Source: Bacillota bacterium (GTDB lineage Bacteria > Bacillota > DTU025). Taken from it: 51,982 nt of DNA. This document shows, one piece after another, positions 1-17,076 of this stretch (within the stretch, counting starts at the first letter, position 1; every line of letters starts with the position of its first letter). The DNA is taken from assembly GCA_035351775.1 (NCBI GenBank), contig DAOPWT010000001.1, positions 1 to 51,982 on the forward strand, read 5' to 3'. The translations under genes and the position numbers were made by a program. Below the pieces are notes generated by a model, which was given only the letters and a program-made list of their open reading frames with translations, was not told the origin of the DNA and searched no databases.

Positions 1-41
1 GGCAGACCGTGGAGCTCAGTGTGACGCTGCGCGAGTTCTAG
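1..41 (+). CDS. 3' end of an unidentified CDS (partial, enters from the left edge)
   Basis: Frame 3 is open from the window edge to TAG at 39-41 (..QTVELSVTLREF*). A strong hairpin follows at 68-100. Too short to identify. Confidence 0.25.
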   Translation, partial: QTVELSVTLREF

Positions 42-67
42 GCTAATCATACCGCCAACATAGGTCA

Positions 68-100
68 TCAGACGCTGGCCTGCTTTCGGCCAGCGTCTGA
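68..100 (+). terminator. Hairpin downstream of the partial CDS (13-bp stem, 7-nt loop)
   Basis: TCAGACGCTGGCC-TGCTTTC-GGCCAGCGTCTGA is a perfect 13-bp stem. No clear T-tract follows, so an intrinsic-terminator role is only probable. Confidence 0.5.
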
Positions 101-139
101 CTGTCAATTGGGCGATTGGGCGTGTGGATTTCGGCCTGG

Positions 140-650
140 TGGCCAATGATCGGGACCATGGTTGCGGACCATGGTTGCGCCGGTATACTTCTGGAGGTAT
201 CCGAGCAGGGATATCAGCAGGTTTTGACGGTAGTTTGGGTCGATGTACTCAATTTCTGAGTACATCCAGTTGGCCGGTGAGCAGATAGGACTGCCCGGGG
301 CCTATTTGGAGGCTGATGGTATCCTATTATGTGGCGAATGACTGGTGTTGCACGCCATCATCCACGCGCAATTGCCAAGCTCCACCATATTATGGGACGT
401 ACTGGTAAGCGCTTCTCCGGCTTCGACGGTCGCGCGCGCCGTATACCCCCCAAATCGCGCGATCTACGGGTCATACGGCAGCCATCCGAAATCGATGTAC
501 TCGATTTTTGCGGCTATCTCCGAAACTGACGTCAAAAATCGAGTACATCCCAGCTCCAGCTGCTTTGACGCCTCATGCCCTTCATTAGGCCAGCTGAGCG
601 CTGTTTTCGGCGAGCATGGCCCTTTCTTGCCTCCGTCCCCTCGCGAAATA
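140..650 (+). repeat. Copy A of a hairpin-rich dispersed repeat (candidate structured RNA or MITE-like element); contains a 143-bp nested insertion
   Basis: Aligns by eye with the reverse complement of 6600-6985. Block 222-335 vs rc(6776-6889) is about 84% identical over 114 nt by hand count. Block 578-632 matches rc(6623-6676). Contains the palindrome GATGTACTCA-ATTTC-TGAGTACATC (242-266) and conserved stems with variable loops. Confidence 0.8.
435..577 (+). repeat. 143-bp insertion present only in repeat copy A; carries a perfect 17-bp inverted repeat
   Basis: Copy B runs straight from CTTCGACGACCGCG into CCCTTCATTAGG, whereas copy A has 143 extra nt between them. The insert holds GATGTACTCGATTTTTG (494-510) and CAAAAATCGAGTACATC (533-549), a perfect 17-bp stem with a 22-nt loop. 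It shares the GATGTACTC..GAGTACATC core of the host repeat. Confidence 0.75.
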
Positions 651-685
651 CCCGACCGCCGAGTCGCCCCGGCTCGCGGGACGGC

Positions 686-820
686 TTGAGTCGCCGTCCT
701 TTCTGTGCTAAGCTTTCTTCAGCCGCTGACTGTAGTCAGCTCGTGCTGTAATTCCCAGTTTATGGCCGAGAACAATAGTACCATGAAGGTACTAGTCCTC
801 CGAACGAGGACCGTATCGTC
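686..820 (+). promoter_or_regulatory. Candidate sigma-A promoter plus structured 5' leader of the ECF S-component gene (possible riboswitch or RBS-sequestering element)
   Basis: TTGAGT (686-691), 17-nt spacer, TGc-TAAGCT (706-714). Three perfect 6-bp hairpins follow: GCTGAC/GTCAGC (725-740), AGTACC/GGTACT (777-793) and GTCCTC/GAGGAC (795-811). The last hairpin contains the only SD-like GAGGA, 10 nt before ATG 821. Confidence 0.4.
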
Positions 821-1384
821 ATGGTATTTTTGTGTTTGGGGGTAAGAGAGTTGAGCGGATCTGCAACCAAGAAACTCGTGTTGGCAGCGTTGTTCCTGGC
901 CTTGGGCCTACTCATGCCATTCCTCACAGGACAGATTCCCAACCTGGGGTCGAAGCTGTTGCCGATGCACCTGCCCGTCTTGATCTGCGGTTTTGTGTGC
1001 GGTTGGCCGACAGGGCTGGTTGTTGGCCTGATCACGCCGGTCTTTCGCAGTCTCATCTTCGGCATGCCGCCGCTGTTTCCGGCAGCAGTGGTCATGTCCT
1101 TTGAGCTGGCCGCATACGGTTTCGCAACCGGCTGGTTCCGTCGGCTGTTGCCCAAGACAAGCGTTTTTGTGTATCTCACGTTGATCTTGTCCATGCTGCT
1201 GGGCAGGGTTGTCTGGGGCGTGGCCAGCATGCTGATTCTGGGCTTCGCCGGTCGCGGGTTTACCTGGAAGGCCTTCATGGCGGGCGCGTTTGTGAATGCG
1301 CTGCCCGGCATCATCTTGCAGCTCGTTCTCATCCCGGTAATAATCATCGCCCTCGATAGAGCCAGGCTGACTGATGATATCTGA
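821..1384 (+). CDS. ECF-type transporter substrate-specific (S) component, about 6 TM
   Basis: 187-aa hydrophobic ORF. The motif GQIPNLGSKLLPMHLPVLICGFVCGWPTG is typical of ECF S-components (ECF_trnsprt-like). No EcfA/T genes are adjacent. An alternative TTG start at 851 is possible. Substrate unknown. Confidence 0.75.
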   Translation: MVFLCLGVRELSGSATKKLVLAALFLALGLLMPFLTGQIPNLGSKLLPMHLPVLICGFVCGWPTGLVVGLITPVFRSLIFGMPPLFPAAVVMSFELAAYGFATGWFRRLLPKTSVFVYLTLILSMLLGRVVWGVASMLILGFAGRGFTWKAFMAGAFVNALPGIILQLVLIPVIIIALDRARLTDDI

Positions 1385-2039
1385 CGGCGACCAACTGCAA
1401 GAGGTGCTCCTATGGCACCAGCAGCGCTATCCCAGGATGCAGATTCAGGACCTGGTGAAGCTGGCCTATCAGAACGAGTTTGCCGGCGGGCACATGATCG
1501 CCGACGCAGCGATCAGCCTGCAGCGTCTGCGCGCGGAATTCCAGGCGATCGCCGGCAACTGCAGCGGTGAGAAGCCGGACGAGGTTTTCGTCGGCATCGG
1601 GAATGGTCTCTGTCGGCTGCAACTTGCAGCCATAGAGAGCACCGGCATCCATCTGACTACCGTCAACCAGTTCTTCGTCAATACTGCCCGATCGAGGCGC
1701 GGAGATCTCACCAGTTTCGAACATAAACTGGAGGTGCTCCGCGCCTGCTGTCAGGCGGGCAGCCTCCCACATTCGCCGGCTGACCTTGACGCTTTCTTGC
1801 TGGCCTACCGGGCGCAAGGCTATCCAGCGATCAGCCATAGCGCGGTCTACCGCGACCACTACAAGCCCGCATACCGGGTGGTCGACTCAGTCTGCCGAGA
1901 TCACTTCGCACTCTTCTGCCGGATTGATGCGCTACTAGAATCGCAGGACACTGTGTGCATCGCTATTGACAGCCCGAGCGGCTCTGGCAAGAGCGGACTC
2001 TCCGCTCTGCTGGGCCAGGTCTATGACTGCAATCTCTGA
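1374..2039 (+). CDS. Kinase-like protein with an N-terminal domain of unknown function plus a Walker A; apparently 3'-truncated (uridine-kinase/PRK-family P-loop cut short)
   Basis: The start overlaps the S-component stop, suggesting translational coupling. The ORF ends IAIDSPSGSGKSGLSALLGQVYDCNL*, only 10 codons after the P-loop. No continuation is seen in any frame of 2040-2229. Confidence 0.45.
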   Translation: MISDGDQLQEVLLWHQQRYPRMQIQDLVKLAYQNEFAGGHMIADAAISLQRLRAEFQAIAGNCSGEKPDEVFVGIGNGLCRLQLAAIESTGIHLTTVNQFFVNTARSRRGDLTSFEHKLEVLRACCQAGSLPHSPADLDAFLLAYRAQGYPAISHSAVYRDHYKPAYRVVDSVCRDHFALFCRIDALLESQDTVCIAIDSPSGSGKSGLSALLGQVYDCNL

Positions 2040-2229
2040 CGGCTCTGACTCAGGGCAACCCTCCGATTTCGAACCAAGGCCAAGCAGTAGTGGAATGGTT
2101 TGGCATCAAAGTACAGCGCTGCCAGGCAGGATTTATCGAAGGACCGTCAAATGGTCACGATGCGTTTCGTTGCACGCAGATTGTTCACGCCATGCGCGAG
2201 ACAGCTATACTCCTAAGGAGGGCACAATC

Positions 2230-4689
2230 TTGAGACGCACGCGTCATGCCGTTATCCTGGCACTTGCCGTATGTCTACTTGCGGCTAGCCTCTCACCCCA
2301 TGCACGTGCGCAGGCAGCAGTTGCCGGCGAGAAGACCTACATAGAGCTGATTCTGGACTCTTCGATCAGCATGAGCGCCCGAGTGGAGGGCTGGAAGTCC
2401 AGAATGGACGTGGCCAAGGCCGTCATGGAGCAGCTCATCCGCGACCTTCCGGACGACCCCAATCTCATGGTGGCGCTCAGGATCTACGGGGCCGAGCTGC
2501 GACCGAACCTGACGCCGTGCGAAGATACGGTGCTGGTTCAGCCCTTCGCTCCCGTGGCCAAGTCGCGGCAGAATATGATCGACCAAGTCAAGTCGATGAA
2601 GGCCAGGGGCATGACGCCCATCGCCCTCTCTTTGGAGCAGGCGGCCCGGGACTTCCCCGACAAGACCGCCCGCAACATAATCGTCCTGATCACCGACGGC
2701 GAGGAAAGCTGCGGCGGCGACCCGTGCGCGGTCTCCGCCCGGCTGCAAGCAGATGGATTCGTCATGAAGCCGTACGTGGTGGGGTTCGCCCTCACCGAGA
2801 AGCAGGCCGCTCTGGTGCGCTGCATTGGCGAGTACTACTCGGCTTCGGATACAGCATCGCTCAGGCAAGCTCTCTCCACGATCATGGCCCGCGCCGTCGC
2901 TCCGGCGCACATAGAGGTGCAGGCCTGGGCGGGCGCGGTCAACGTGACAGCGCAGGCGCAAATCGAGATCGTGAAGTCCACCGGCGAGGTCGTGCAGTCG
3001 ACCCGCACCGCGCAGGACCCCCCTGTCGTGCGCGCGCAGGTGGATGAGGGCCAGTACACAGTGCGCGGTCGTCTCATCGTGGGGTCGCAGGTTCTGACGG
3101 CCCAGGCCGTGGGGATTGCCGCGAAACCCGGGCAGACCAGCCTGGTGAGGCTGGACTTCGGTCCGCTGGATGGCAGGGTCCGCGTGACCGCCCGCGCGTC
3201 CGGGCAGGACGTTAGCGGCCGCGTCGACATACGCGTGCTGAAGGCGGGCGCGCCCATCGCAGCGAGCTGGGCCGGGATTCCGCCCACCACGAATCTGCCG
3301 GCGGGCGACTACACAGTCATCGTCACCCACAGGCAGTATCCCGAGCTCACCCGCACGGCGGCAGCCACAGTCCGGGCCGGCCAGGACACCTACGTCGACG
3401 TGGACCTGGGCGAGCTGCCGGCGACGCTCGAGGTGACGGTGACCTACCGCGGAGCGGTCATATCCAACCTGTGCCAGCTGAGCGTGTTCGCGCCGGGGCA
3501 GGCAACGCAGGTGATACGCAGCACAGCTGACGGACGTATGTTCCGTTGGACCTCAACTCCCGGAACCTATGACCTCAGTGTGATGTACCGCGATCTTGTC
3601 ACAGTTGAGAAGGGCGTTCCCGGCGTGCAGCTGGCAGGCGGCCGAACGACCAATATCACCGTGACCCTGGACGACCTCCTCGGCACGCTCCGAACGCACG
3701 TCGTGGCGGGCGGGCGCGATGTAACCGCCGATTCGCACGTGACGGCGGCGGGCCGCGACGGCCAGATCGAACTGCCCTACATGGCGGACGCGCGCCAGGC
3801 GCTCGTGACGCCGGGCGTCTACGCCGTGACCGCGGTCTACTGCGACTCCGAAAGCGATATGTATGAAACCTACGTCAAGCCCGGGGATATCACGGATCTG
3901 ACCCTCGAGGTCAAGTTACCCGGCTTGATCGCGATAATCCCCACAATCGAGGGCAAGCCCATGAGGACCGACAAGCTCCGTGCATGGGCGAGTCTTGACG
4001 GAGTGTCAGTCGGCACTGTCGCGATTCAGCCCGATAGAGTCGAGTTGACTGTGCCGGAAGGCGCCTACACCGTTGTGGGCGAGATATCCGATCCGTTCGC
4101 CCAGCGCAGGGAGGCACCCAAAGTACAGGTGCGGGCAGGCGAAACGGTTCAGGTCAAGATGGACTTCGATCCTGCGGGACTCCTACGCGTCAAGGTTATG
4201 TCCGATGGAAAGCCCCTCACCGAAGCCAAAGTGATGGTGTACCTAGACGGCAAGGGTGGCGGGATGTGGATGAATCAGGTAGACAAGGGCGTATGGGAGA
4301 TGAAGATCGCCGAAGGCACGCACGATATCATGGTCCTCCCGAATGCTGAGGGCTCGAAGTCGCAGCGAATCTCCGGCATAGAAGTTCTCAGCGGAAGCAC
4401 CGTGGAAAAAACCGTCACCGTGGCCGGCAAGGGACTCCTCCGCATCAAGCTCGTCTCCGATGGGAAGCCCTTCACCGAGGCCGTCGTGTTCGTACAGTTA
4501 CACGGTAAGGGTGCCTCGGTATTGATAAAGCAGGTAGGCAAGGGCGTATGGGAGATGGAGGTCGCCGAAGGCACCCACATCATCTCCATTGTTCCAAGCG
4601 CTAAGGGCATGAAGTCGCAGGGGATTCCCGGAGTAGAAGTCGCCAGCGGCGCTATCGTTGAGGTCGTCTTCGACGTCAGTTCTCCTTGA
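2230..4689 (+). CDS. Secreted von Willebrand factor A (VWA) domain protein with multiple Ig-like/carboxypeptidase-regulatory-like beta repeats
   Basis: TTG start at 2230, 7 nt after AAGGAGGG. Signal peptide RRTRHAVILALAVCLLAASLSPHARAQA. MIDAS motif DSSISMS. The rest is a long beta-rich, repeat-containing region. The last two ~85-aa units (4176-4430 and 4431-4686) form a clear tandem duplication. Confidence 0.85.
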   Translation: MRRTRHAVILALAVCLLAASLSPHARAQAAVAGEKTYIELILDSSISMSARVEGWKSRMDVAKAVMEQLIRDLPDDPNLMVALRIYGAELRPNLTPCEDTVLVQPFAPVAKSRQNMIDQVKSMKARGMTPIALSLEQAARDFPDKTARNIIVLITDGEESCGGDPCAVSARLQADGFVMKPYVVGFALTEKQAALVRCIGEYYSASDTASLRQALSTIMARAVAPAHIEVQAWAGAVNVTAQAQIEIVKSTGEVVQSTRTAQDPPVVRAQVDEGQYTVRGRLIVGSQVLTAQAVGIAAKPGQTSLVRLDFGPLDGRVRVTARASGQDVSGRVDIRVLKAGAPIAASWAGIPPTTNLPAGDYTVIVTHRQYPELTRTAAATVRAGQDTYVDVDLGELPATLEVTVTYRGAVISNLCQLSVFAPGQATQVIRSTADGRMFRWTSTPGTYDLSVMYRDLVTVEKGVPGVQLAGGRTTNITVTLDDLLGTLRTHVVAGGRDVTADSHVTAAGRDGQIELPYMADARQALVTPGVYAVTAVYCDSESDMYETYVKPGDITDLTLEVKLPGLIAIIPTIEGKPMRTDKLRAWASLDGVSVGTVAIQPDRVELTVPEGAYTVVGEISDPFAQRREAPKVQVRAGETVQVKMDFDPAGLLRVKVMSDGKPLTEAKVMVYLDGKGGGMWMNQVDKGVWEMKIAEGTHDIMVLPNAEGSKSQRISGIEVLSGSTVEKTVTVAGKGLLRIKLVSDGKPFTEAVVFVQLHGKGASVLIKQVGKGVWEMEVAEGTHIISIVPSAKGMKSQGIPGVEVASGAIVEVVFDVSSP

Positions 4690-4747
4690 CGTTAGGTTCA
4701 GCATGACAGCGCTCGAGCGCCGGATTGCTCAGCGCAGGTATACTGAG

Positions 4748-4779
4748 GGGCGAGGCTGGCAGCCTCGCCCTTCGCTTTT
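4748..4779 (+). terminator. Rho-independent terminator after the VWA gene
   Basis: GGGCGAGGC-TGGCA-GCCTCGCCC followed by TTCGCTTTT. Confidence 0.8.
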
Positions 4780-4862
4780 CACGGTCTGTCTTGGGGCATA
4801 CTCATATGGATGCTCGCCGCTCAGCGGACGATCAGTCATCACACGCGGAGAAGGAGGCACCA

Positions 4863-6557
4863 GTGCACGTGGACATTCAGGATAGTCACGGCGCTTCGGA
4901 TGGGCAGCAGATAGCATGGCGAGGTTGGGGCAGCCAGCCGTTCGACGAAGCACGCGCCGCGGAGAAGCCAGTGCTTCTGTCGATATCTGCGTCGTGGTGC
5001 CACTGGTGTCATGTCATGGACCGAACAACCTTCTCCGACCGCGATGTCGCAGCTCTCGTCAACGAAGCGTACGTCCCCGTACGCGTCGACACTGATGTGC
5101 GCCCGGACGTGAACTCCCGCTACAACATGGGCGGATGGCCGACGGTGGCCATTCTCGATCATGACGGACACACACTGGCAGGCGCGACGTACGTGCCTCC
5201 CGACCGGATGCTGGAGTGGCTAGGCCGGGTATCGCGAGCCTACCCTACACTGACGCGCTCCGGCATGGGCGGAGATCATGAGATGGTCAAGGATCGCCAG
5301 CACGAACTAGACTACGACGGCGAATACGATGACGTCGGCACTTCCGACCGCGAACCCGACCTGGACCCCTATTACGATGTGCTGGGCGATTTGATGGCTT
5401 CCTACGATCCTGTGTATGGCGGGTTCGGAGACGCCCCCAAGTTCCCCATGTTCGAAGCGATCAACCTCGCGATTCTCGCGTACCGTGTCAGCGGCGATGG
5501 CTCGTACAGACAGGTCTTCGAGCATACGCTGCGTGCCATGACCTCGGGCGGAACCTACGACAAAGTAGAAGGCGGTCTCTTCCGATATTCCACAGTCCGC
5601 GACTGGAGCGTACCTCATTTCGAGAAGATGCTGCTCGACAATGCGCTTCTCCTCCATACTCTGGCAAACGCATATCAGGCGACACAGAATTCGGAGTTCG
5701 CCGCCGCTGCGCACAGCACTGTCAGCTACATGAACTCCGTCCTGTTCCAGCCGAACATCCCGGCATGGTCAGGCTCGCAGGACGCTGACGAGGAATACTA
5801 CGTTCTGGCCGCCGCCGAAGAGCGCGCTCGCCGCACCCCGCCGCGAGTCGATACCCGCATATACGTTGACTGGAACGGTCGCGCATCCGCAGCCATGATC
5901 ACCGCCGGGCGCGTGTTCGGCGAACCCGAATGGACCTCGCGCGGGGTGCACGTCCTCCGCGCCATCGTCGACAGATGCCTCGACCCGCAGCGCGGCCTGG
6001 CACATCTGTACGATGGCGAACCTCGCCTGTTTGGGCTAGCCCACGACACGATTTCCGTAGGCGCTGCCTGCCTAGATGCGTTCGAGGCGACGGGCGACCA
6101 GAGTTGGCTTGAGCTGCCGTCTACGCTAGCCCAGTCGCTCATCGCAAGCCACGCCGCGGCGCGGTACATTCGAGGAGCAGCAGGGCTGGTTTCGAGGATT
6201 CCCAACCCCGATGACCCGCCGGCCTTCAAAGAGCCGGCACGCGACTACCAGGAAAACGCTTATGCTGCTATCTGGTTCGTACGGCTGTCCCGCGCACTGC
6301 GCCGCGTCCTGAACGCCGACGATGATCGCGCCGCAGACAACGGCTCGCAAGGTGTGTGCACCGCCCCCGGAGTCTGCAGCATGCCCAGCGCGCCTAATGC
6401 ATCAGGCGAAACCGCCGAGATCGAGATTCTGAGCGCTGCGAACTCATGCCTTGCCTGCTGCCGAGCGAACTATGGAGATCATGGCCTTATGGCTTCAGGC
6501 TACGCCCTCGCACTTGGCCATCTCGCGCTGTCGCCCAACCGCAGCCTGTGCCCGTGA
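4863..6557 (+). CDS. Thioredoxin-domain protein of the DUF255/YyaL family (thioredoxin fold plus alpha/alpha-toroid-like C-terminal region)
   Basis: KPVLLSISASWCHWCHVMDRTTF..GGWPTVAILD is the DUF255 thioredoxin-like signature. GTG 4863 (or 4869) follows a strong AAGGAGG at 4851-4857. The upstream part of the ORF overlaps the terminator. ATG 4806 is an alternative start. Confidence 0.8.
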   Translation: MHVDIQDSHGASDGQQIAWRGWGSQPFDEARAAEKPVLLSISASWCHWCHVMDRTTFSDRDVAALVNEAYVPVRVDTDVRPDVNSRYNMGGWPTVAILDHDGHTLAGATYVPPDRMLEWLGRVSRAYPTLTRSGMGGDHEMVKDRQHELDYDGEYDDVGTSDREPDLDPYYDVLGDLMASYDPVYGGFGDAPKFPMFEAINLAILAYRVSGDGSYRQVFEHTLRAMTSGGTYDKVEGGLFRYSTVRDWSVPHFEKMLLDNALLLHTLANAYQATQNSEFAAAAHSTVSYMNSVLFQPNIPAWSGSQDADEEYYVLAAAEERARRTPPRVDTRIYVDWNGRASAAMITAGRVFGEPEWTSRGVHVLRAIVDRCLDPQRGLAHLYDGEPRLFGLAHDTISVGAACLDAFEATGDQSWLELPSTLAQSLIASHAAARYIRGAAGLVSRIPNPDDPPAFKEPARDYQENAYAAIWFVRLSRALRRVLNADDDRAADNGSQGVCTAPGVCSMPSAPNASGETAEIEILSAANSCLACCRANYGDHGLMASGYALALGHLALSPNRSLCP

Positions 6558-6599
6558 GTGCATGTGGCCTCTGCCGGCTCCGGTGATGGGAGTATCAGT

Positions 6600-6985
6600 C
6601 AGGTATGCCCACAGTGGATGTAGGCACGAAGGCGCCATGCTCGCCGAAAGTCCCGCCCAGCTGGCCTAATGAAGGGCGCGGTCGTCGAAGCCCGCAAAGC
6701 CATTACCAAGGTGCCCCATAATATGGGTATATATGCCAACGACCCACAGCCGATGGTGCTTACTGCCCGCTACTTGCCACATAATGGGGCATCATCGGCC
6801 CCCGAATACGCCCCTGGCAGTCGTGTCTGCTCACCGGCCACCCGGATGTACTCAAAAGTTGAGTACAGCGACCCGAACTATCGTCAAAATTTGAGGGTAT
6901 CGCCTGCGGGATACCCCCGGGGGTATATCGGCGCAACCACGGGTGCGACGACGGACTGTACCGGTCGAGTCGGCCATCACCTCAA
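6600..6985 (-). repeat. Copy B of the hairpin-rich repeat (inverted relative to copy A, lacks the 143-bp insertion)
   Basis: Its reverse complement aligns with 140-434 plus 578-632. Contains the palindrome TGTACTCAA-AAG-TTGAGTACA (6847-6867) and the stem GGGTATC/GATACCC. Confidence 0.8.
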
Positions 6986-7312
6986 GCGAGGCAAACACAT
7001 GCTCAGCAGATGCCGATACCGCTTGGATCGAAGCAGCGTTCTCCTCATCCAGAGACGCCACTGTGCTCACATCCTGCGCACCTGGCCGGCCTCTGCCAGC
7101 ACACTGGCGAACTCCGCACTCGCCTACCTGAGTTTCTCCGCGCCGCACGGATCGTCCGGTTGCAGCAACACCGCCTTCATGGCATCCGACACCGAAAGAT
7201 CGACGAACTGTACCTCCTCTGCCAGCTCCAGGCGGTGATACGCACGAGACGCGAGCCTCGCGGTGGTCTTGCCGAAATAGACATCTCCCGGTAGCCAAGT
7301 AGCGAGGCACAC
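6960..7312 (-). pseudogene. Frameshifted gene remnants, including a methyl-accepting-chemotaxis-protein-like C-terminal fragment
   Basis: Minus-strand frames give ..STVASLDEENAASIQAVSASAEHVFASLEVMADS. This resembles the MCP signalling-domain C-terminus pattern VA..EE..AS.EE.SAS.EEL. Short stop-interrupted pieces precede it (..SAEFASVLAEAGQVRRM*, ..GDVYFGKTTARLAS..EKLR*). There is no room for a full gene before the divergent ABC gene at 7456. Confidence 0.4.
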
Positions 7313-7376
7313 CCAGACTGCCCCAGACCGCCCCAGACTGCCTATGTACTGGAGAGTGCTGGCGAATGCTGGTGAA
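7311..7376. repeat. Two sets of tandem 10-bp direct repeats upstream of the ABC exporter operon
   Basis: ACCCAGACTG CCCCAGACCG CCCCAGACTG (7311-7340), then TGCTGGCGAA TGCTGGTGAA (7357-7376). A TATAAT lies about 30 nt downstream. Confidence 0.7.
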
Positions 7377-7455
7377 CGCGTCTTTCATCTGGATGCATTG
7401 TGGGCTATAATAATGTGGTGTCGCGTGCGATAGCCGCAGAATCGAGGAGTGGCCG

Positions 7456-9207
7456 TTGAAACGCTTCGAGCATATACGGGAATTTCTGTCCAGGCACAAG
7501 TGGGAGTACGTTGCAGGAATCGCCTGCCTTATCCTCGTCGACGCGCTGCAGCTGGTTATCCCGCGTCTACTCGGAAAGCTCACCGACAGTCTCCGCGCAG
7601 GCACCCTCACCAGCGATGGGCTGCGTAACTTCGTTATCGTAATCATGGGCATAGCCGGCGCCATAGCGGCAGGTCGGTTCCTATGGCGCATTTTCATCAA
7701 CGGCACGGCCCGGTTGCTGGATCTCTACCTGAGGAACAAGCTCTTTGCCCATCTGGAACGGCTTCCGGCTCGCTACTACAACGAGCACAAGACGGGGGAT
7801 TTGATGGCCCACGCCACCAACGATATCCCGGCAATCAGGCAGACGTTCGGGCAGGGATTCATCCTGTTGACTGACGCCATTTTCATGACAGGCGCCACAC
7901 TAATCATACTGTTCAGAACTACGCCACTGCAACTGGCTCTGCTGAGCTTGCTCCCCTTCCCCTTCCTAGCCCTGGGGACTACGCTTTTCAGCAAGTTGGT
8001 CGGCCCTCGTTTCCGAGCCGTGCACGAGGCATTCTCCAGTCTCACCGAACGAGCACAGGAGAGCATCGCGGGCATACGAGTAGTGAAGGCTTTCGTGCAG
8101 GAGAAGCCGGAAACGGGCAGATTCATGGATGTCGCCCAGCGAAACGTGGACGAGAACATGCGACTGATCCGCATATGGGGACTGATGTTCCCCATGAGCG
8201 GCCTTGCGTCGACTCTGGCCTTCGTATTCGTACTCAAGTACGGATCGGCCATGATAATCAGGCAGGAGATATCGCTGGGGGATTTTGTGGCCCTCACCAG
8301 CTACCTGGCAATGCTAGTGTGGCCGATGATCGCAGTCGGCTGGGTGATAAACGTGGTTCAGCGTGGCTACACCGCGCTAGACAGGATCAACAAGATCCTG
8401 AATGAGGCGCCCGAAGTCGCCGATGAACTGCAGGCAGTTGAGCTCCCCTCGGTTGCCGGCACAATCGAATTCCGAAATGTAACGTTCTCTTACTCCCCAG
8501 AACTGCCTCCCGCACTGAGCGATGTGTCATTCACGATTGAGGCAGGCAAGACGCTGGCCGTTGTGGGCAGGACCGGCAGCGGAAAGAGCACGATAGTCAG
8601 TCTTCTGACCCGTCTGTACAATCCCCCGCCAGGAAGCGTGTTCATCGACGGACACGACATAAGGCACGTCACCCTTGAATCCCTCCGCAGCCAGCTGGGA
8701 GTGGTTTTGCAGGAGTCATTCCTGTTCTCGACGACCATCGGCGAGAACATAGCGTTCGCCTCTGATGAGTACCCCCAGGAGAGAATCGAGCATTTCGCCG
8801 ACGTAGCGCAGGTGGGCAAGGACATTTCCGGATTCCCGGATGGATTCGACACAATGGTAGGAGAACGCGGCGTGACACTGTCGGGCGGTCAGAAGCAGCG
8901 AATATGCATCGCGCGTGCTCTGATCAAGGAGCCGAAAGTGCTCGTGCTCGATGACTGCCTGTCGGCTGTAGACACGCAGACGGAAGAGAGTATTCTTCAT
9001 GGATTGCGCGAGTACATGCGCGGTCGTACCAGCATCATAATCTCGCACCGCATTTCTACAGTGAAGGACGCAGACGAGATCATAGTCCTAGACGACGGCA
9101 TCGTTCGGGAACGAGGCACCCATGATTCGCTCGTGGCCGCTGGCGGGCTCTACCACGAGCTACACGAGAAACAGCTCCTCGAAGAGGAGTTGGCCAGCAA
9201 GAGCTAG
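7456..9207 (+). CDS. ABC exporter, fused permease/ATPase half-transporter (subunit 1 of a heterodimer pair)
   Basis: 583 aa with a 6-TM N-terminal domain. Walker A GRTGSGKST, signature LSGGQKQR, Walker B VLVLDD. TTG start. Confidence 0.9.
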   Translation: MKRFEHIREFLSRHKWEYVAGIACLILVDALQLVIPRLLGKLTDSLRAGTLTSDGLRNFVIVIMGIAGAIAAGRFLWRIFINGTARLLDLYLRNKLFAHLERLPARYYNEHKTGDLMAHATNDIPAIRQTFGQGFILLTDAIFMTGATLIILFRTTPLQLALLSLLPFPFLALGTTLFSKLVGPRFRAVHEAFSSLTERAQESIAGIRVVKAFVQEKPETGRFMDVAQRNVDENMRLIRIWGLMFPMSGLASTLAFVFVLKYGSAMIIRQEISLGDFVALTSYLAMLVWPMIAVGWVINVVQRGYTALDRINKILNEAPEVADELQAVELPSVAGTIEFRNVTFSYSPELPPALSDVSFTIEAGKTLAVVGRTGSGKSTIVSLLTRLYNPPPGSVFIDGHDIRHVTLESLRSQLGVVLQESFLFSTTIGENIAFASDEYPQERIEHFADVAQVGKDISGFPDGFDTMVGERGVTLSGGQKQRICIARALIKEPKVLVLDDCLSAVDTQTEESILHGLREYMRGRTSIIISHRISTVKDADEIIVLDDGIVRERGTHDSLVAAGGLYHELHEKQLLEEELASKS

Positions 9208-9262: not shown

Positions 9263-11410
9263 GTGAACGGCTACGGTAAAGACGAAGACATACTCGGAAA
9301 GGCGTACGACTCCAGGCTCATGCGCCGCCTGCTCAAATACGCCAAGCCATACTGGGCCATCTTCGCCGCAGCGCTCGCGGTCCTGATGGTGATTGCTGCC
9401 GCAGACCTTGTGAGGCCGTATGTTATCAAGATCGCCATCGATGAACACGTGACCGGTTACGAGCACCCCATGGCCCGCTTTGAGCCGGGCCAGGCGCCTG
9501 CCGGCGTGCGTGAAGAGCACAAAATGCGCTACGCTGGGTCCGTGTTCGTAAGGTCCGAGCATCTCCCTGTTGAGACGCGCCATGAAGCTCACTACCAGAT
9601 GCTGGCCGTGTCGGGCAAGTATGTGATAATCGACACGGTCCTGCCTCGAGAGCACGGTCGCGCCGAGCTGCTTGCGACTGCAGATGGGGCAGTACTCCGC
9701 GTAGATTCGCTGGACTACGCTGCCGAGATAGTTGATAGTGCCGATGCCGTTCGCGTGTTCCGTGAGCGCGACATCGAGGCCATCGGAAGGCTTGCCCTAT
9801 TGCTGCTGGCTGTGGGAATGGGCGCCTTTGCGCTCAACTACGCTCAAACCGTTACGCTGCACTATGTTGGCCAGCGCATAGTCTACAACATAAGGCAAGA
9901 AGTGTTCACTCACATAACCCATATGGACCTGGCTTTCTTCGATCATAGCCCCGTAGGGCGTCTTGTAACGCGGGTTACCAATGACACTGAGACGCTCAGT
10001 GAGATGTACACCAGCGTCCTGGTGAATCTATTCAAAGATGTGTTCATGCTCATAGGCATCATCGTAGTCATGTTCCGCCTCAACACCCAGCTCGCTCTGA
10101 TATCCATGGCCACATTACCGCTGATCGCAGTGGTGACTGTCGTGTTCAGAGTCAAGGCGCGCGACGCCTACAGGCGACTCAGGGCAGCGCTTGCGAAGAT
10201 CAACGCATTCATGGCCGAGAGCATCTCGGGCATGCGCGTAGTGCAGATCTACAACCGCGAGAAGAAGAAGCTGGACGAGTTTGCCGAAGTCAACCGCGAT
10301 TACTACAGGGCGGGCATTGGGGAAATGATGGTATACGCCATATTCAGGCCAATAGTTGAGCTCATTGGCACTGTGGCTCTGTCGCTCCTCGTATGGTACG
10401 GCGGCAGACGCGTGATCACGGGACTAATGCCGTTCGGGCTGGTATATGCGTTCATCAACTACATCGGGATGTTCTTTGGCCCCATCAATGACCTGACTGA
10501 GAAGTACAATATCCTGCAGGCAGCCATGGCTTCATCCGAGCGAATGTTCCAGCTGCTTGACACGCCTATCACTGTTTGCGATCCTGCCGATCCGGTCGAG
10601 CTCAGTCAGGTACGGGGCGAGATCGAGTTCAGGAACGTATGGTTCGCCTACAACAGCGAGGACTGGGTGCTCCGCGATGTCAGTTTCACAATAAAGCCTG
10701 GCGAGATGGTTGCCTTCGTGGGGGCCACCGGGGCGGGCAAGACCTCAATCATCAGCCTCATGAATAGGTTCTACGACATTCAGAAGGGCGCGATACTGAT
10801 TGACGGGATCGACATCCGGCGGTACCGAGTGAGCGACCTCCGTAGGAACATCGCCACCGTACTGCAGGAGGTATTCCTCTTCACAGGCGACATAAAGGGC
10901 AACATCCGTCTGAACAACACCGACATATCGGATGAGAAGATCCGGGAGGTAGCTCACTATGTGAACGCCGACCATTTCATATCTCGACTGCCGCATGGTT
11001 ACGATGAAGCCGTAACTGAGCGCGGTTCCACGCTTTCGGCCGGCCAGCGCCAGTTGCTTGCGTTCGCGCGAGCCCTGGCTTTCGATCCGGCGATACTAGT
11101 GCTCGACGAAGCCACGGCCAATATCGATACTGAGACGGAACTGCTTATACAGGATGCGCTGCCGAAGCTGATCGAGGGGCGCACGACCATTGTAGTGGCT
11201 CACCGATTGTCCACAATCCAGCATGCCGACAAGATAATCGTGCTTCACAAAGGGCGTATCCGAGAGATGGGCACGCACCAGGAGCTATTGGCGCACAAAG
11301 GGATCTACTACGACCTATACAGGCTACAGTACAAAGACGATTCTGTGCTGCCCGCATCGTCAACCAGTGTGGACGCCTACTTCCCGGATGAGGCGGACCA
11401 GATGGCATAG
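9263..11410 (+). CDS. ABC exporter, fused permease/ATPase half-transporter (subunit 2) with an unusually large first extracytoplasmic loop
   Basis: 715 aa. Walker A GATGAGKTS, signature LSAGQRQL, Walker B ILVLDEAT. About 125 non-hydrophobic residues lie between TM1 (..IAAADLVRPYVIKIAI) and TM2 (..LALLLLAVGMGAF). GTG start after GAAGAGGTGG. Confidence 0.9.
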   Translation: MNGYGKDEDILGKAYDSRLMRRLLKYAKPYWAIFAAALAVLMVIAAADLVRPYVIKIAIDEHVTGYEHPMARFEPGQAPAGVREEHKMRYAGSVFVRSEHLPVETRHEAHYQMLAVSGKYVIIDTVLPREHGRAELLATADGAVLRVDSLDYAAEIVDSADAVRVFRERDIEAIGRLALLLLAVGMGAFALNYAQTVTLHYVGQRIVYNIRQEVFTHITHMDLAFFDHSPVGRLVTRVTNDTETLSEMYTSVLVNLFKDVFMLIGIIVVMFRLNTQLALISMATLPLIAVVTVVFRVKARDAYRRLRAALAKINAFMAESISGMRVVQIYNREKKKLDEFAEVNRDYYRAGIGEMMVYAIFRPIVELIGTVALSLLVWYGGRRVITGLMPFGLVYAFINYIGMFFGPINDLTEKYNILQAAMASSERMFQLLDTPITVCDPADPVELSQVRGEIEFRNVWFAYNSEDWVLRDVSFTIKPGEMVAFVGATGAGKTSIISLMNRFYDIQKGAILIDGIDIRRYRVSDLRRNIATVLQEVFLFTGDIKGNIRLNNTDISDEKIREVAHYVNADHFISRLPHGYDEAVTERGSTLSAGQRQLLAFARALAFDPAILVLDEATANIDTETELLIQDALPKLIEGRTTIVVAHRLSTIQHADKIIVLHKGRIREMGTHQELLAHKGIYYDLYRLQYKDDSVLPASSTSVDAYFPDEADQMA

Positions 11411-14489: not shown

Positions 14490-16154
14490 CTAGGAGTCCT
14501 CGTTTCGCCAGAAACATGAACCCCCGATGAACTCCCTCATGATTGAATTAGGAGGAATGCCCGCCGCCTTCACCGGCAGGATGTACTTCAGGAACTTCCT
14601 CAGGCGTTTGGCCTCGATAGACTCAGGCTCATCCGGACGTATCGCGTCCAGCAACTCCTCAGCGTACGGCTTCAGCACCGCCAGCTCATAGGCGAGCGCC
14701 GTATTGAACATCACGTCGGCCGTCTCCTGAAACAGGAAGATGTTCCGCTCCTCGCCCGCTCTCACCTTGGGCCACATCCTGATTGTCTGCTGTGCGCTGT
14801 GGCCACGGAATAACCTATCCCGCACCAGTCGCCTGAGGATCCGCACATCGGTAGTGGGAATCCTGTTGTGGTCATCGATGTTCAGGTGCGTCAAGGCTGA
14901 TGCATATATCTTGAACTTGCGCCCCATAGGTATGGAGCGAGTGAGCGCATCGTTCAGCCCGTGGATCCCTTCGATGATCAGCAGCTGGTCGCGTTCCAGC
15001 TTGATAGGACGGCTCTTGGCTGCCCGTCTGCCCGCGCGGAAGTCGAAAACAGGCGTCTCTACCTCTTCTCCCTGGATCATGCGGGTCATATGCTCGTTGA
15101 GCAGACGTATGTCGATGGCGTCAATGGACTCAAAATCGTGTTCTCCGTCTGCATCGCGCGGCGTGCTATCCCGGTCGACGAAGTAGTCATCCAGCGATAT
15201 GGGTACTGGATTGAGCCCGTTCACTCTGAGTTGCACCGACAGGCGTTGCGCAAACGTCGTCTTCCCTGAAGACGAAGGGCCGGCGATGAGCACAACTGCT
15301 ATTCTATCACGATTCGATGCGATGACGTCAGCGATCTGCGCGACCTTCTTCTCGTGAAGCGCTTCTACAGTCTGAATCAGTGCATTGACGTCGCCGGCTC
15401 GTATTACGTCGTTGAGCGACGCAACGTCGGTCACACCGATCACCTTGCCCCATTTCTCCGCTTCGAAGTACACGGTGGCAAGCTTGCCCTGCTCCACGTA
15501 GTCGGGCAGTTCCAAAGGGTTGGCCCGCCTGGGGAACTCCAAGATGAAGCCGGGCAGGTAGTGCCGAAGCCGGAAAGACTTCAGATAGCCGGTGCTCGGC
15601 GCCATGTACCCGTACAGGTAGTCGCTGAGCCACCCACACTGGTATATGTTCACAGTATCGGACGTACGGTACTTCAGCAGACGGACCTTGTCCATCTGGC
15701 CATCGCTCCGGAACAGCTCGATTGCGTCAGACACCGCGATGCGATTGCGCTCGATGGGCATATCGCTCGCGACTATCTCGTGCATCCGCGCCTCAATCGC
15801 GCCGACGTGCGCCTCTGTGAGCGGTCGCCTCCACCTTATCTCCCCATAGAGCCCGTTCGACAACGAATGCTGAATCATGACACGACAGCCCTGCAGAACC
15901 TCCCGGGCCGCCATCACCAAGGTGAGAATGCCTGTGCGCCTGTATATCCTCATGCCGTCCTCGGCGCCTATGTCTACGAAATCTACCCTGGCGTCACGAT
16001 TCGGCCTATAGGTCAACTCCCTCAGGTCGTGATCCACTCTGGCTGCTATCACAGGCCACCGGCGCCCGTGCGGCACTGCCCGAGCCAAGCATTCGAGAGT
16101 GATTCCCGGCTCCGCCTGGTGCTGTGAGCCGTCAGGAAGGGTAATCGTGATCAT
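14490..16154 (-). CDS. Uridine-kinase-family nucleoside kinase with an N-terminal TGS/ThrRS-like domain
   Basis: Starts MITITLPDGS (TGS-like). P-loop VVLIAGPSSSGKTTFAQRL lies in the C-terminal half. 554 aa from ATG 16154. Confidence 0.85.
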   Translation of the reverse strand: MITITLPDGSQHQAEPGITLECLARAVPHGRRWPVIAARVDHDLRELTYRPNRDARVDFVDIGAEDGMRIYRRTGILTLVMAAREVLQGCRVMIQHSLSNGLYGEIRWRRPLTEAHVGAIEARMHEIVASDMPIERNRIAVSDAIELFRSDGQMDKVRLLKYRTSDTVNIYQCGWLSDYLYGYMAPSTGYLKSFRLRHYLPGFILEFPRRANPLELPDYVEQGKLATVYFEAEKWGKVIGVTDVASLNDVIRAGDVNALIQTVEALHEKKVAQIADVIASNRDRIAVVLIAGPSSSGKTTFAQRLSVQLRVNGLNPVPISLDDYFVDRDSTPRDADGEHDFESIDAIDIRLLNEHMTRMIQGEEVETPVFDFRAGRRAAKSRPIKLERDQLLIIEGIHGLNDALTRSIPMGRKFKIYASALTHLNIDDHNRIPTTDVRILRRLVRDRLFRGHSAQQTIRMWPKVRAGEERNIFLFQETADVMFNTALAYELAVLKPYAEELLDAIRPDEPESIEAKRLRKFLKYILPVKAAGIPPNSIMREFIGGSCFWRNEDS

Positions 16155-16248
16155 GTCGTCCTCTCCCGAACCGTAGTAGCGCGAAGTGATGCTCAGAGAA
16201 CATGATACATCGGTACGCGCCGGGGGTAAAGCCGCGTCGATGGTGTGA

Positions 16249-17076
16249 TTAGGCCCTGGAAAGCGAACCCCTCCGCAGCGAAGTGCGAAACGCAGCGTTG
16301 AACGACAGAAGCCCCGCGAAAAAGTAGACAAGTGTCATGATGGATGCCAGCGCCACGCAGGGCCAGGCGACTCCTCGGGCGAGAAGCCCCGCCGTTTCGC
16401 TGCCTCCGAACGTGAGATCTGCCGCGAGCCCGTACCACCAGCGATATGGGAACACGATGCCTAGCGCCCCAAGCCCGATGTCCAACTGCCTGATGGGCGC
16501 CAGCGCCAGAGCGAAAACGGCCATCGACACCAGATTCACCAGGCCTCCGACCCGCTTGACCAGAAGTGCAACTGCTCCAAGAGCATACCCGATGCCCAGC
16601 ATGGCCAGGCGCATCATGGCCATGGGGGCCAAGGCGACGGCCGCCGGCCAGGGAAACCGGACCCCTGTGGTCAGCGATACTGCCCCCATGATCAGTGCCA
16701 TACTCGGGATGAAGCTCACGAAGGACGCAATATCGCGCAGCAGCCCGATCACCCAGAGCGGAACAGCTGACATCGCCAGCTGATCCAGAGTGGCCGTGCC
16801 GGGTTCCTCAGTTGCGAGCAGCGAAGCCCCCTGAACCGCCCCCAGGCAGCAGAAGATGCACGCAAAGGCGAACATCGCCTCGCTCGCGGCCCGGCCCTGA
16901 AGGCCGCCGGATGCCATCGTCGCCATGGCTGACGGCACGGGCACACGGCCGGACGCAGCAAACACGGCGACTACTAGGAATATGTATACCGCCAGCGACT
17001 CGGTGACAAACTCCATCGGACTGCGCGCTCGGCGCAACAGCCCTCGCTTCACCTCATACCAGAGAATAACGTGCAT
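16249..17076 (-). CDS. ABC-2 type exporter permease
   Basis: 275-aa polytopic membrane ORF. It overlaps the stop of the upstream ATPase gene by 23 nt. Confidence 0.75.
   Translation of the reverse strand: MHVILWYEVKRGLLRRARSPMEFVTESLAVYIFLVVAVFAASGRVPVPSAMATMASGGLQGRAASEAMFAFACIFCCLGAVQGASLLATEEPGTATLDQLAMSAVPLWVIGLLRDIASFVSFIPSMALIMGAVSLTTGVRFPWPAAVALAPMAMMRLAMLGIGYALGAVALLVKRVGGLVNLVSMAVFALALAPIRQLDIGLGALGIVFPYRWWYGLAADLTFGGSETAGLLARGVAWPCVALASIMTLVYFFAGLLSFNAAFRTSLRRGSLSRA

Follow-up and report, generated by a model that had tools for sequence, protein, structure and literature searches.

The palindrome-associated elements (PATEs) derived from the IS200/IS605 group carry, at both ends, sub-terminal hairpins that resemble each other and lie on one strand; they insert 3′ of a fixed tetra- or pentanucleotide and are associated with tnpA or tnpB. 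Within the Bacillus cereus group, bcr repeats that include non-MITE classes were reportedly described by Kristoffersen and colleagues in 2011. The repeat bcr1 has been discussed in PMC3184786, and REP families are positioned 3′ of coding regions, where the neighbouring ORFs run in one direction or converge (PMC3733652). Here, the comparison is extended to a repeat that occurs twice, as copies A and B, in a 51,982-nucleotide stretch of DNA from a Bacillota bacterium (referred to as the window).

Two separate repeat copies and the genes between them

Copy A (approximately positions 140–682, plus strand) is homologous to the reverse complement of copy B (approximately 6558–6960) in three blocks of 81%, 76%, and 80% identity, with a best E value of 3e-39. 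A repeat search of the window placed the inverted arms at 169–335/6776–6942 (167 nt, 79%), 385–435/6676–6726 (76%), and 577–656/6598–6677 (79%), and self-blastn recovered 81% identity over 168 nt (E 3e-39) and 80% over 80 nt (E 3e-14), so that the inverted repeat claimed in a preliminary description of this DNA is real by both searches. The hairpins listed there are also in place, namely GGTATCC/GGATATC, which is an alternative hairpin at the ATACCCCCGGGGGTAT palindrome, GCAG-N6-CTGC at 281–294, and GATGTACTCA-loop-TGAGTACATC at 242–266. No third copy was found by blastn in the 52 kb. A and B are two separate members of a non-coding interspersed repeat family with a unit of approximately 540–580 bp, and both are damaged, A by a degenerate palindrome and a lost tail and B by loss of the 142-bp H2 module.

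Between the arms lie the four genes of the first description, namely an ECF-S gene, a 221-aa ORF that stops shortly past a P-loop, a VWA gene, and a DUF255 gene. The idea that the copies bracket this cassette as a unit had to be abandoned, since solo copies occur in unrelated contexts and relatives possess the cassette without copies. Loci L263–L266 have the same four genes and no repeat copy, while L267 and L268 have the same cassette with degenerate remnants at the A site in the orientation opposite to that of A, the whole element and not only its centre being reversed. At all 10 of the 10 contig places shown, the cassette itself lies in a single orientation, and no transposase or recombinase was found in the window. 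The cassette is ordinary syntenic chromosome rather than a unit defined by the repeats, and A and B, as decaying family members, do not mark the termini of a mobile cassette.

Organisation and damage of the element

Read in the orientation of copy A, a full copy consists of a GG.GCCRYGG fringe, a palindrome, motif a, hairpin H1, a variable centre, hairpin H2, a 3′ block, and a tail. Copy A spans 140–682 on the plus strand, with a profile core at 165–666 (nhmmer with the family profile, hmm 6–507, E 1e-153); its family-consensus 3′ tail is missing or replaced beyond approximately 656, and at this site flank homology to relatives ends at 99 and starts again at 683. Upstream of A lies a paralogue (L006) of the VWA gene in the cassette. 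The GG.GCCRYGG short-repeat zone precedes every copy, with GGGGCCGTGG-type repeats that vary in number in a left-boundary comparison, and in A it includes a 13-nt tandem duplication (GACCATGGTTGCG twice, 153–179, plus strand). The 16-bp palindrome that follows at 185–200 (plus strand) is degenerate in A (ATACTTCTGGAGGTAT versus the family ATACCCCCGGGGGTAT), where no match to ATACCCCCGGGGGTAT within two substitutions exists and the stem survives through a T.G wobble and a double change from C-G to T-A. Every other copy matches ATACCCCCGGGGGTAT perfectly or nearly so, and in nearly all of them, the most divergent included, the palindrome is perfect even at its centre.

Motif a (CAGGTTTTGACGGTAGTTTGGG, 218–239, plus strand) is an inverted repeat of the H2 loop and 3′ arm (AAACTGACGTCAAAAAT at 525–541), and H1 (242–266, plus strand, GATGTACTCA-ATTTC-TGAGTACATC) is a 9-7-9 palindrome, invariant in most copies, whose 5′ arm has been lost in L269 and L270. 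The variable centre (323–396, plus strand) is bounded by complementary AT-rich boxes, CCTATTATGTGG at 323–334 and CCATATTATGGG at 385–396, which form helix 165–176/227–238 of alignment A4, where one pair varies between AU, GC, and GU. H2 (494–549, plus strand) has a 17-bp stem (GATGTACTCGATTTTTG/CAAAAATCGAGTACATC) and a 22-nt loop (TATCTCCGAAACT) whose sequence is conserved as well, and it lies in a module (436–577, plus strand) that is present in A and all other family members and deleted from copy B. Its 5′ arm repeats that of H1, its loop and 3′ arm are the inverse of motif a, and both hairpins share the lower stem GATGTACTC.../...GAGTACATC on the same strand. A 3′ conserved block (GCCCTTCATTAGGCCAGCTG...TTTCGGCGAGCATGGC) occupies 577–656 on the plus strand.

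Mean column conservation reaches 0.87–0.95 across 480–559, the H2 region, and the most conserved parts of the family are the palindrome ATACCCCCGGGGGTAT and the two related hairpins, conserved in both stem and loop. Conservation is thus strongly uneven and hairpin-centred. The element is not neutral spacer, as the earlier description held, and it is not a gene remnant. The accompanying statement that stems are preserved while loops differ is correct for the A/B pair only; across the family, conservation is as high in the loops of H1 and H2 as in their stems. The palindrome and hairpin motifs were found only inside copies, never alone, over 204 kb of lineage DNA.

Copy B (6558–6960, minus strand) is decayed and was matched by nhmmer in two parts, hmm 4–276 at 6948–6676 (E 1.6e-66) and hmm 415–508 at 6680–6587 (E 1.2e-16). 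Its family tail reaches the DUF255 stop codon (approximately 6558), its 5′ side takes the place of the 3′ end of a decayed chemoreceptor gene, and weak fringe similarity to A extends as far as approximately 6985. A perfect ATACCCCCGGGGGTAT palindrome is retained at 6911–6926, together with H1 at 6844–6869 (minus strand, read as GCTGTACTCAA-CTT-TTGAGTACATCC). The junction of the 142-bp internal deletion lies at 6676–6680 (minus strand) in a CGCG(C) microhomology, and L012, whose DUF255 gene is 99.3% identical, has 142 extra bases at window position 6676. An insertion of 436–577 in A was considered and rejected, because this segment is kept by L012 and all other family members, indicating a 142-bp deletion in B. 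Between strains, copy B shows 11 differences in 400 nt versus 4 in 1600 nt of the adjacent gene, an approximately 10-fold faster divergence. The L267 copy carries a deletion between the identical 5′ arms of H1 and H2, which, with the B deletion at CGCGC, suggests that parts are lost by recombination between internal repeats.

The element is non-coding. Mismatches between A and B fall at codon positions in the ratio 14/12/9, pN/pS is 0.5–1.0, stops occur in every frame, and indels break the frames; neither a conserved small ORF nor a positionally conserved hydrophobic ORF (the type I toxin-antitoxin criterion) was found in the element. Annotation pipelines place a 171- or 189-aa gene over B, and the ORF at 6669–7238 has only two matches, both near-identical, among 5.8 billion proteins. 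A protein-coding gene or pseudogene is excluded by the lack of codon-position bias, the pN/pS values, the stops, and the scarcity of homologues.

Family distribution and competing explanations

Further copies were found at no fewer than 13 other distinct loci, in both orientations, on contigs from metagenomes that represent either the same lineage or a related one. The first 13 metagenome loci represent at least seven locus classes with homology limited to window positions 166–658, and a further search added 19 "proteins" that are spurious ORFs and five new loci. Pairwise identity among 13 distinct loci is 53–76% (median 66%), the copies being deeply diverged and star-like, unlike a recent burst. 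The long loci show a tetranucleotide correlation with the window of 0.95 versus a maximum of 0.92 for 50 background loci, which supports the same lineage for both. The core spurious ORF is matched by only 26 clusters among 1.84 billion representative proteins, 108 pattern matches in contigs of GTDB species-representative genomes yielded no family copy, and none was found in viral contigs, phage records, or plasmid records. The family is confined to a narrow uncultured Bacillota lineage of approximately 60% GC, sampled in metagenomes of digesters and wastewater.

All copies are intergenic; they usually follow a co-oriented gene or separate two convergent genes, and each has unrelated flanking (housekeeping) genes. 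These neighbours include RNase E/G and rplU-Prp, redoxin and PAP2, HD/CHAP, glycoside hydrolase and LacI, ABC transporters, FliS/FlgN, and OppC and DUF1848, among others. At 8 of 10 scorable loci, the copy runs in the same direction as its upstream gene (p = 0.11), a hint that it may act at the level of the transcript. Orthologous copies have fewer substitutions at family-invariant columns (11 of 404 versus 34 of 549; p = 0.013), which points to constraint in place, or gene conversion, rather than dead copies.

Local alignment of the left end of each copy with the reverse complement of its right end gave no consistent terminal inverted repeat. Target-site duplications at the copy flanks, which the preliminary description had proposed to look for, did not emerge, no shared or duplicated flank being found in 14 copies, a test made weak by fuzzy boundaries. 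Neighbour annotation of approximately 204 kb of lineage loci contained no transposase, and the loci compared included no empty or filled site with clean boundaries and no mobilising protein. For these reasons, mobility is not demonstrated. Considering all the observations, we judge it an even call whether this is a new family of REP/BIME-like extragenic palindromic repeats that once spread in trans and is now decaying. Counting against this reading, besides the undemonstrated mobility, are the deep and star-like divergence of the copies, the depletion of substitutions at invariant columns, the co-orientation with upstream genes, and a unit far larger and less numerous than REPs or REPINs. Such a family would most likely be a non-autonomous extragenic palindromic repeat with a logic similar to that of REP/BIME/REPIN. 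A protein encoded at another locus would have acted on its invariant palindrome and hairpins, which it probably recognised in folded single-stranded form, and would thereby have seeded further intergenic copies in the past. The copies would now persist vertically, losing parts when internal repeats of one copy recombine, and sequence may also pass between copies. A copy behind a co-oriented gene probably forms part of that gene's 3′ UTR; that its hairpins act there on RNA ends is speculation.

It is doubtful that the element is instead a gene family for a large (approximately 500 nt) structured non-coding RNA, independently transcribed or processed from 3′ UTRs, with the hairpins and long-range pairings as its architecture. 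The consensus fold of −77 or −92 versus −40 ± 4.5 kcal/mol for column-shuffled controls, the z of −4.1 for copy A folded alone, and the 11 double-change pairs against 6.1 expected in the 13-sequence alignment A4 (0 of 500 shuffles as high) all favour such an RNA, as do the compensated palindrome stem of A, the avoidance of invariant columns by orthologous substitutions, and the co-orientation of 8 of 10 copies. The covariation, however, is gone when divergent members are added, the 15-sequence alignment A6 giving 5 pairs versus 4.4 expected with 224 of 500 shuffles as high, so that the covariation check proposed earlier returned a non-significant result. Moreover, both strands fold equally well with contradictory G.U versus A.C asymmetry, the best-conserved helices and their loops are invariant to the same degree, H1 and H2 have each lost an arm in L269 and L270, copies such as B, L267, and L268 decay freely, and no conserved sigma-70-type promoter or intrinsic terminator is present at the element boundaries. 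In A6, the long-range helix 131–144/443–456, which involves motif a, is 95% paired with zero double changes. Rfam 15 at the gathering threshold gave no match in the window, and at E of 5–10 or less only chance-level matches, none recurring at the same place, were obtained for 1–7600 and eight other copies, in agreement with the earlier remark that no standard feature type explains the element. Given the non-significant covariation with 15 sequences and the like folding of both strands, a structured RNA is not established; of the original proposal of a structured RNA or a hairpin-recognised mobile element, the further copies and hairpin-centred conservation stand, while covariation and target-site duplications do not. 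We think it similarly improbable that the approximately 560-bp element is an undescribed functional unit kept by selection at each locus, either as a multi-copy large ncRNA or as a DNA element that depends on a dedicated trans-acting protein to read its invariant palindrome and paired hairpins, although such selection is hinted at by the depletion of orthologous substitutions at invariant columns.

A cis-acting array of double-stranded DNA sites, in which a dimeric DNA-binding protein (a regulator, a nucleoid or segregation factor, or a site-specific recombinase) reads the 16-bp palindrome and the 9-7-9 H1, appears less probable still. It would account for the perfection of ATACCCCCGGGGGTAT, centre included, in nearly all copies, the most divergent among them, and for the conservation of H1 and H2 as sequence, not merely as pairing, with both strands equivalent; the form of ATACCCCCGGGGGTAT, with A/T-rich ends and a CCCGGG centre, may also recall ParB/Noc-type sites. 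Such an array sits poorly with motifs that occur only within the 560-bp unit, decay and absence from sister lineages are not what one expects of host-essential sites, and no candidate binding protein was identified. Very unlikely is an invertible switch, whether a recombinase whose gene lies elsewhere flips the central approximately 240 bp, with the 3′ arm of H1 and the 5′ arm of H2 as inverted repeats, or A and B invert the 6-kb cassette. This is suggested by L269 and L270, where only the H1-3′/H2-5′ complementarity survives, extended to 12–16 bp, by TATAAT-like boxes in the centre of some copies, and by the opposite orientation of the A-site remnants in L267 and L268. Yet all copies, at least 20 in number, and all translated spurious ORFs are collinear, the cassette never changes orientation at the 10 contig places, no recombinase lies nearby, the promoter-like boxes are not conserved and have spacers of 19–20 nt, and L267 and L268 reverse the whole element. 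Effectively refuted is the notion that the arms terminate a composite mobile cassette or derive from a single protein-coding gene that was duplicated and then decayed. The inverted arms do flank exactly four genes, with a gene called over B and a VWA paralogue upstream of A, but at least 13 unrelated loci have solo copies, L263–L266 keep the cassette in synteny with no copy beside it, and the window holds no transposase; nor do the absent codon-position bias, a pN/pS of about 1, frame-breaking indels, and the handful of relatives of the called and core ORFs fit a gene.

Comparison with described repeat classes

The nearest described classes share some features with the element and differ in others. 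H1 and H2, similar hairpins on one strand with a common lower stem, may correspond to the sub-terminal hairpins of PATEs, but H1 lies approximately 100 nt and H2 130–190 nt from the element boundaries. As in PATEs, the element has no terminal inverted repeats, target-site duplication, or internal gene; unlike in PATEs, conservation runs approximately 70–100 nt past H1 and approximately 130 nt past H2. The family also differs in having no conserved flanking tetranucleotide, no TnpA/TnpB at any locus, and no replication-strand bias within the window, where A and B are opposite. The non-MITE bcr classes are likewise said to be intergenic repeats specific to a Firmicute lineage, to measure a few hundred bp, to have a predicted secondary structure and moderate copy number, and in some cases to keep stable positions; the present family has no sequence relationship to them, differs in host and GC content, and is set apart by its invariant 16-bp palindrome and duplicated hairpin modules.

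If this is only a repeat family, it explains assembly breaks in the intergenic DNA of the digester and wastewater Bacillota lineage, accounts for spurious "hypothetical proteins" of 45–218 aa, and offers strain-typing markers. If the in-place constraint is real, retention at 12 or more loci during divergence to approximately 66% implies a dedicated partner protein or RNA function; to our knowledge, neither has been catalogued for such an element in Gram-positive bacteria.

MITEs (PMC3184786) are also small non-autonomous intergenic repeats with fold-back potential, from which the present element differs by its lack of detectable terminal inverted repeats or target-site duplications. The differences from REP and REPIN concern size (approximately 560 bp versus 20–40 bp for REP or approximately 100 bp for REPIN), copy number (tens at most in the data, not hundreds), the 53–76% identity of copies with conserved spacer and loops, and the missing unpaired GTAG tag, to which the CGTC that heads the H2 3′ arm might correspond, CGTC being an alternative tag in REP systems. 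No RAYT gene, which encodes a Y1 transposase and in REPIN-RAYT systems is single-copy and flanked by the repeats, turned up among the neighbours annotated in approximately 204 kb of lineage loci. The likeness to REP/BIME/REPIN lies in a non-coding, strictly extragenic, lineage-specific, and vertically persistent element with no internal transposase, in palindromic units that appear in either direction inside a single element, and in a location mostly downstream of genes, between unidirectional or convergent ORFs (PMC3733652, PMC3116915, PMC3337134). H2, with two inverted 17-nt units around a spacer, has a REPIN-like layout but is embedded in a 560-bp element, and with genuine constraint in place the family would provide a Gram-positive, large-format counterpart to REPIN-RAYT for studying the long-term persistence of intragenomic replicators.

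The inverted pair and its wider family

The inverted repeat of the preliminary description was recovered by repeat search, blastn and gapped alignment alike. Copy A (~140-682, + strand) and copy B (~6558-6960, - strand) paired in the repeat search of the window as the arms 169-335/6776-6942 (167 nt, 79%), 385-435/6676-6726 (51 nt, 76%) and 577-656/6598-6677 (80 nt, 79%). Searching each arm by blastn across the full 52 kb of the window gave one match of 168 nt at 81% (E 3e-39) and one of 80 nt at 80% (E 3e-14), with no third copy for either arm. In the gapped alignment, homology in A extends from ~140-165 as far as 656, and in B it starts at ~6985-6945 and reaches 6598.

Alignments A3, A4 and A6 revealed a repeat unit of ~540-580 bp, the parts of which are given here in the orientation of A. 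It comprises a left fringe of short GG.GCCRYGG repeats in variable number, a palindrome (ATACCCCCGGGGGTAT) that all copies but A carry in perfect or near-perfect form and that is overlapped by an alternative hairpin (GGTATCC/GGATATC), motif a (ATTTTGACGNTAGTTT), hairpin H1 (GATGTACTCA-loop-TGAGTACATC), a variable centre closed by two complementary AT-rich boxes, hairpin H2, a 3' block that includes CATTAGGCCAGCT, and a tail (...CCAACTAGTAGAGCC...CAC.C). The 5' arm of H2 (GATGTACTCAATTTTTG) is a second instance of the H1 5' arm; the 22-nt loop of H2 is conserved and, taken with the 3' arm, forms the inverse of motif a. Column conservation falls from 0.9-0.95 around the palindrome, H1 and H2 to 0.66-0.7 in the centre, and across 204 kb of lineage DNA the palindrome and hairpin motifs occur only inside copies. 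At the left edge of the repeat (window 153-179; L127 ~10905-10990; L140 ~190-277), tandem units of 8-13 nt (GGGGCCGTGG and similar) vary in count and differ between orthologous copies.

In copy A, the palindrome carries four substitutions, its stem being saved by one double change, C-G to T-A, together with one wobble, and the tail, which B keeps abutting the DUF255 stop codon, is missing and has been replaced. Copy B lacks 142 bp including H2. The preliminary description had read this segment as an insertion in A; however, the contig L012, with a DUF255 gene 99.3% identical to that of the window, yet retains it (~89% identical to that of A, the junction flanked by CGCGC). The difference is thus a recent deletion in B, because a near-identical strain keeps the segment. 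Between the window and L012, B differs at 11/400 positions and the adjoining gene at 4/1600; copy B is drifting. Nearby, at 7161-7360, CCCCAGAC(C/T)G repeats form a tract that differs in length by 20 nt (indel 7311-7330) and has 25 mismatches in 200 nt between these otherwise 99% identical strains. We hold with high confidence that A and B are damaged or partly decayed, independent members of the repeat family.

A search for further copies, as proposed at the outset, revealed a dispersed family rather than a pair. Scanning metagenome contigs with the hairpin pattern yielded at least 13 loci that match A over ~450-495 nt at 71-79%, their homology with the window being limited to 166-658. All-versus-all comparison resolved these into singletons and several orthologous groups, within which identity is 92-99% with flanks included; between any two groups it is 71-80%. 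A second probe, made by translating the spurious open frame that crosses the conserved core, added 19 'proteins' leading to five further loci (L269-L273), and pairwise identity among 13 distinct loci is 53-76% (median 66%). The tetranucleotide signature of the long loci correlates with that of the window at r = 0.95, equal to proven relatives, and 50 background loci of similar GC reach at most 0.92. Locus L269 (GC 0.56, r = 0.77) probably comes from a more distant organism, lower in GC and compositionally different. In 1.84 billion representative proteins the spurious-frame profile matched no more than 26 clusters, the hairpin pattern gave 108 chance-level matches and no homologous copy in GTDB species-representative genomes, and viral contigs, phage records and plasmid records held no copies. 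The family is narrow in range and lineage-specific.

L269 (5771-6203) and L270 (1634-2139) form a divergent subfamily, in which the H1 5' arm and the H2 3' arm are destroyed while complementarity between the H1 3' arm and the H2 5' arm is kept and extended to 12-16 bp through replacement of ATTTTT by AAAAA. Orthology was also considered for L269 and L186, which each follow a GH42-like gene, and was rejected because the proteins are only 23-31% identical.

Copies are intergenic without exception; several lie between convergent genes, and at 8 of 10 scorable loci the copy lies downstream of a co-oriented gene (binomial p = 0.11). This matches the position pattern reported for REP families (PMC3733652). 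The genes beside copies have unrelated housekeeping functions: RNase E/G with the rplU-Prp-rpmA operon, redoxin with a PAP2 phosphatase, an HD/CHAP protein, glycoside hydrolase with LacI, ABC transporters, a GH35/42 galactosidase, FliS/FlgN, OppC with DUF1848, and a transglutaminase-like protein with a HAD hydrolase. Among orthologous copies, substitutions fall on 11 of 404 family-invariant columns versus 34 of 549 variable ones (p = 0.013), a depletion that speaks against copies being simply 'dead on arrival'; the same pattern would result from gene conversion between copies as from constraint. Two public ORFs from short metagenome contigs (P0126 and P0127) have a mosaic structure in which different copy classes meet at the invariant H2 core, with a 5' half like the L129 or L156 class and a 3' half and flank like the L186 locus; they may be real recombinants or gene conversion products, or short-read assembly chimeras.

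Coding, RNA and DNA readings of the repeat

The possibility, raised in the preliminary description, that both copies are remnants of one duplicated coding gene was rejected, every coding test being negative. Mismatches between A and B fall 14/12/9 by codon position in the frame of the only long ORF over B (6669-7238, + strand). Public assemblies annotate that ORF as a protein of 171 or 189 aa, for which a search of 5.8 billion proteins gave only two relatives, both near-identical. Across the family (six frames, three regions), pN/pS is 0.5-1.0 and stop codons occur in every frame of both strands, one-nt indels upstream of the core break all frames, and neither a positionally conserved small ORF nor a type I toxin was found. 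A 'MYSIF...' frame through H2 was dismissed as coding, being open only because the DNA is invariant (pN/pS ~1.0). Public pipelines call 'hypothetical proteins' of 45-218 aa over repeat copies (6669-7238; P0123-P0160); with homologues only within the repeat family and pN/pS ~1, these calls are spurious.

The first-ranked alternative is a family of RNA genes. The consensus folds at -77 kcal/mol (A strand) and -92 kcal/mol (opposite strand) versus -40 +/- 4.5 for column shuffles, and single-copy folding gives z = -4.1 for A and -1.2 for B with its deletion; the folding potential is real. The two strands are equivalent in folding, and the best helices (H1, H2 and the palindrome) are invariant, with loops as invariant as stems. 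Covariation gave 11 pairs versus 6.1 expected from shuffling in 13 partly redundant sequences, and 5 versus 4.4 in 15 sequences including divergent members, where 224 of 500 shuffles scored as high and the signal was gone. Wobble asymmetry is contradictory, GGTATCC/GGATATC favouring the A strand and an A.C mismatch in H2 the other; a strand call from G.U versus A.C counts was rejected as biased by the folding strand, the helices disagreeing. Scans found no conserved promoter or terminator at the repeat boundaries, Rfam searches of the window and eight other copies (gathering threshold and permissive E-value) returned nothing consistent, and a tRNA/tmRNA scan was empty. A sigma-54-like GG-N10-GC in the left fringe and central TTGACA/TATAAT boxes, inspected by eye, were discarded as unconserved or misspaced. 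A structured RNA is a possible reading. Invariance of palindromes at the sequence level points at least as strongly to protein recognition, and an array of protein-binding DNA sites ranks second among the alternatives.

The cassette and its flanks

The four genes between A and B encode an ECF-transporter S component, a 221-aa ORF, a VWA/CarboxypepD_reg protein and a DUF255 thioredoxin-domain protein. The preliminary description took the repeats to bracket this cassette. Relatives with a DUF255 protein 78-83% identical carry the same block from ECF-S to DUF255, but L263-L266 have no repeat element on either side of it. Degenerate copies lie at the A site of L267 and L268 on the opposite strand; in L267 the DNA between the identical H1 and H2 5' arms is deleted, and only a 3' stub remains at its B site. 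Flank homology with the window ends at 99 and restarts at 683, the conserved ECF-S promoter/leader, and A therefore lies in fast-turnover spacer. With high confidence, the position of the cassette between A and B is incidental and not defined by the repeats. An invertible switch, acting either between the H1 3' and H2 5' arms or between A and B, ranks third; the strain of the window shows one cassette orientation in all 10 contig places shown. A composite transposon, ranked last together with a pseudogene, is effectively refuted. No transposase, recombinase or reverse transcriptase lies beside any copy. Inspection for target-site duplications, as proposed, and for terminal inverted repeats uncovered neither, and the window is ordinary chromosome (dnaK-grpE-dnaJ-clpB, ychF, oligopeptidase F and others).

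Several features of these flanks were recorded in passing. The leader at 686-835 (+) precedes the ECF-S gene (821/851) and contains a promoter-like TTGAGT-17-TAAGCT, a perfect hairpin CAGCCGCTGACTGTAGTCAGCTC, and a long nested hairpin after which comes ATTTTTGTGTTT (terminator-like). It is 84-92% conserved in L265, L267 and L268, beginning exactly at the end of repeat DNA, has no Rfam match, and is a candidate orphan riboswitch or attenuator of the ECF-S operon. Beside B, ~6961-7315 (-) is a remnant of a methyl-accepting chemotaxis protein gene, its 3' end overlaid by B; its C- and N-terminal pieces, with ~1.4 kb deleted between them, are 77-82% identical to the intact 630-aa HAMP/MCPsignal chemoreceptor gene that L263 has in its place (5145-7037). 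A second, unrelated non-coding repeat family (~150-270 bp, 84-94% identity) occurs on both cassette sides in L267 (1132-1280, 1848-1983, 7126-7337), downstream of DUF255 in L263 (4092-4361), and in L268 (5826-6235); cassette-flanking spacers collect repeats in several lineages.

Within the cassette, the VWA/CarboxypepD_reg gene has an internal tandem duplication (4176-4394 and 4431-4649, +; 255-nt period, 74% identity), and a paralogue of this gene, 1074 aa long in L006, lies upstream of A. The 221-aa ORF (1374-2039, +) has no Pfam match and ends a few residues past a Walker-A/P-loop motif, SPSGSGKSG. As its relatives are likewise short (177-224 aa), the truncation is old or the protein genuinely short. 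Paralogy with the PRK-family gene at 14490-16331 was rejected, the P-loop alone matching.

Proposed propagation and comparison with known elements

Taken together, A and B belong, with high confidence, to a lineage-specific, non-coding, hairpin-rich interspersed repeat family. A protein encoded elsewhere may recognise the conserved hairpins and propagate the gene-less unit in trans into extragenic sites, after which the unit would persist vertically and erode via its own internal repeats. The H2 loop was also considered as resembling the inner part of Tn3-family inverted repeats, but this idea was dropped, as the terminal GGGG is lacking and the orientation is wrong. By analogy, the closest logic would be that of REP/BIME/REPIN or IS200/IS605-derived palindromic elements. 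However, simple membership of these classes is at odds with a 560-bp unit, low copy number and deep divergence, the absence of a diagnostic tag, flank motif or transposase, and loops that are conserved.
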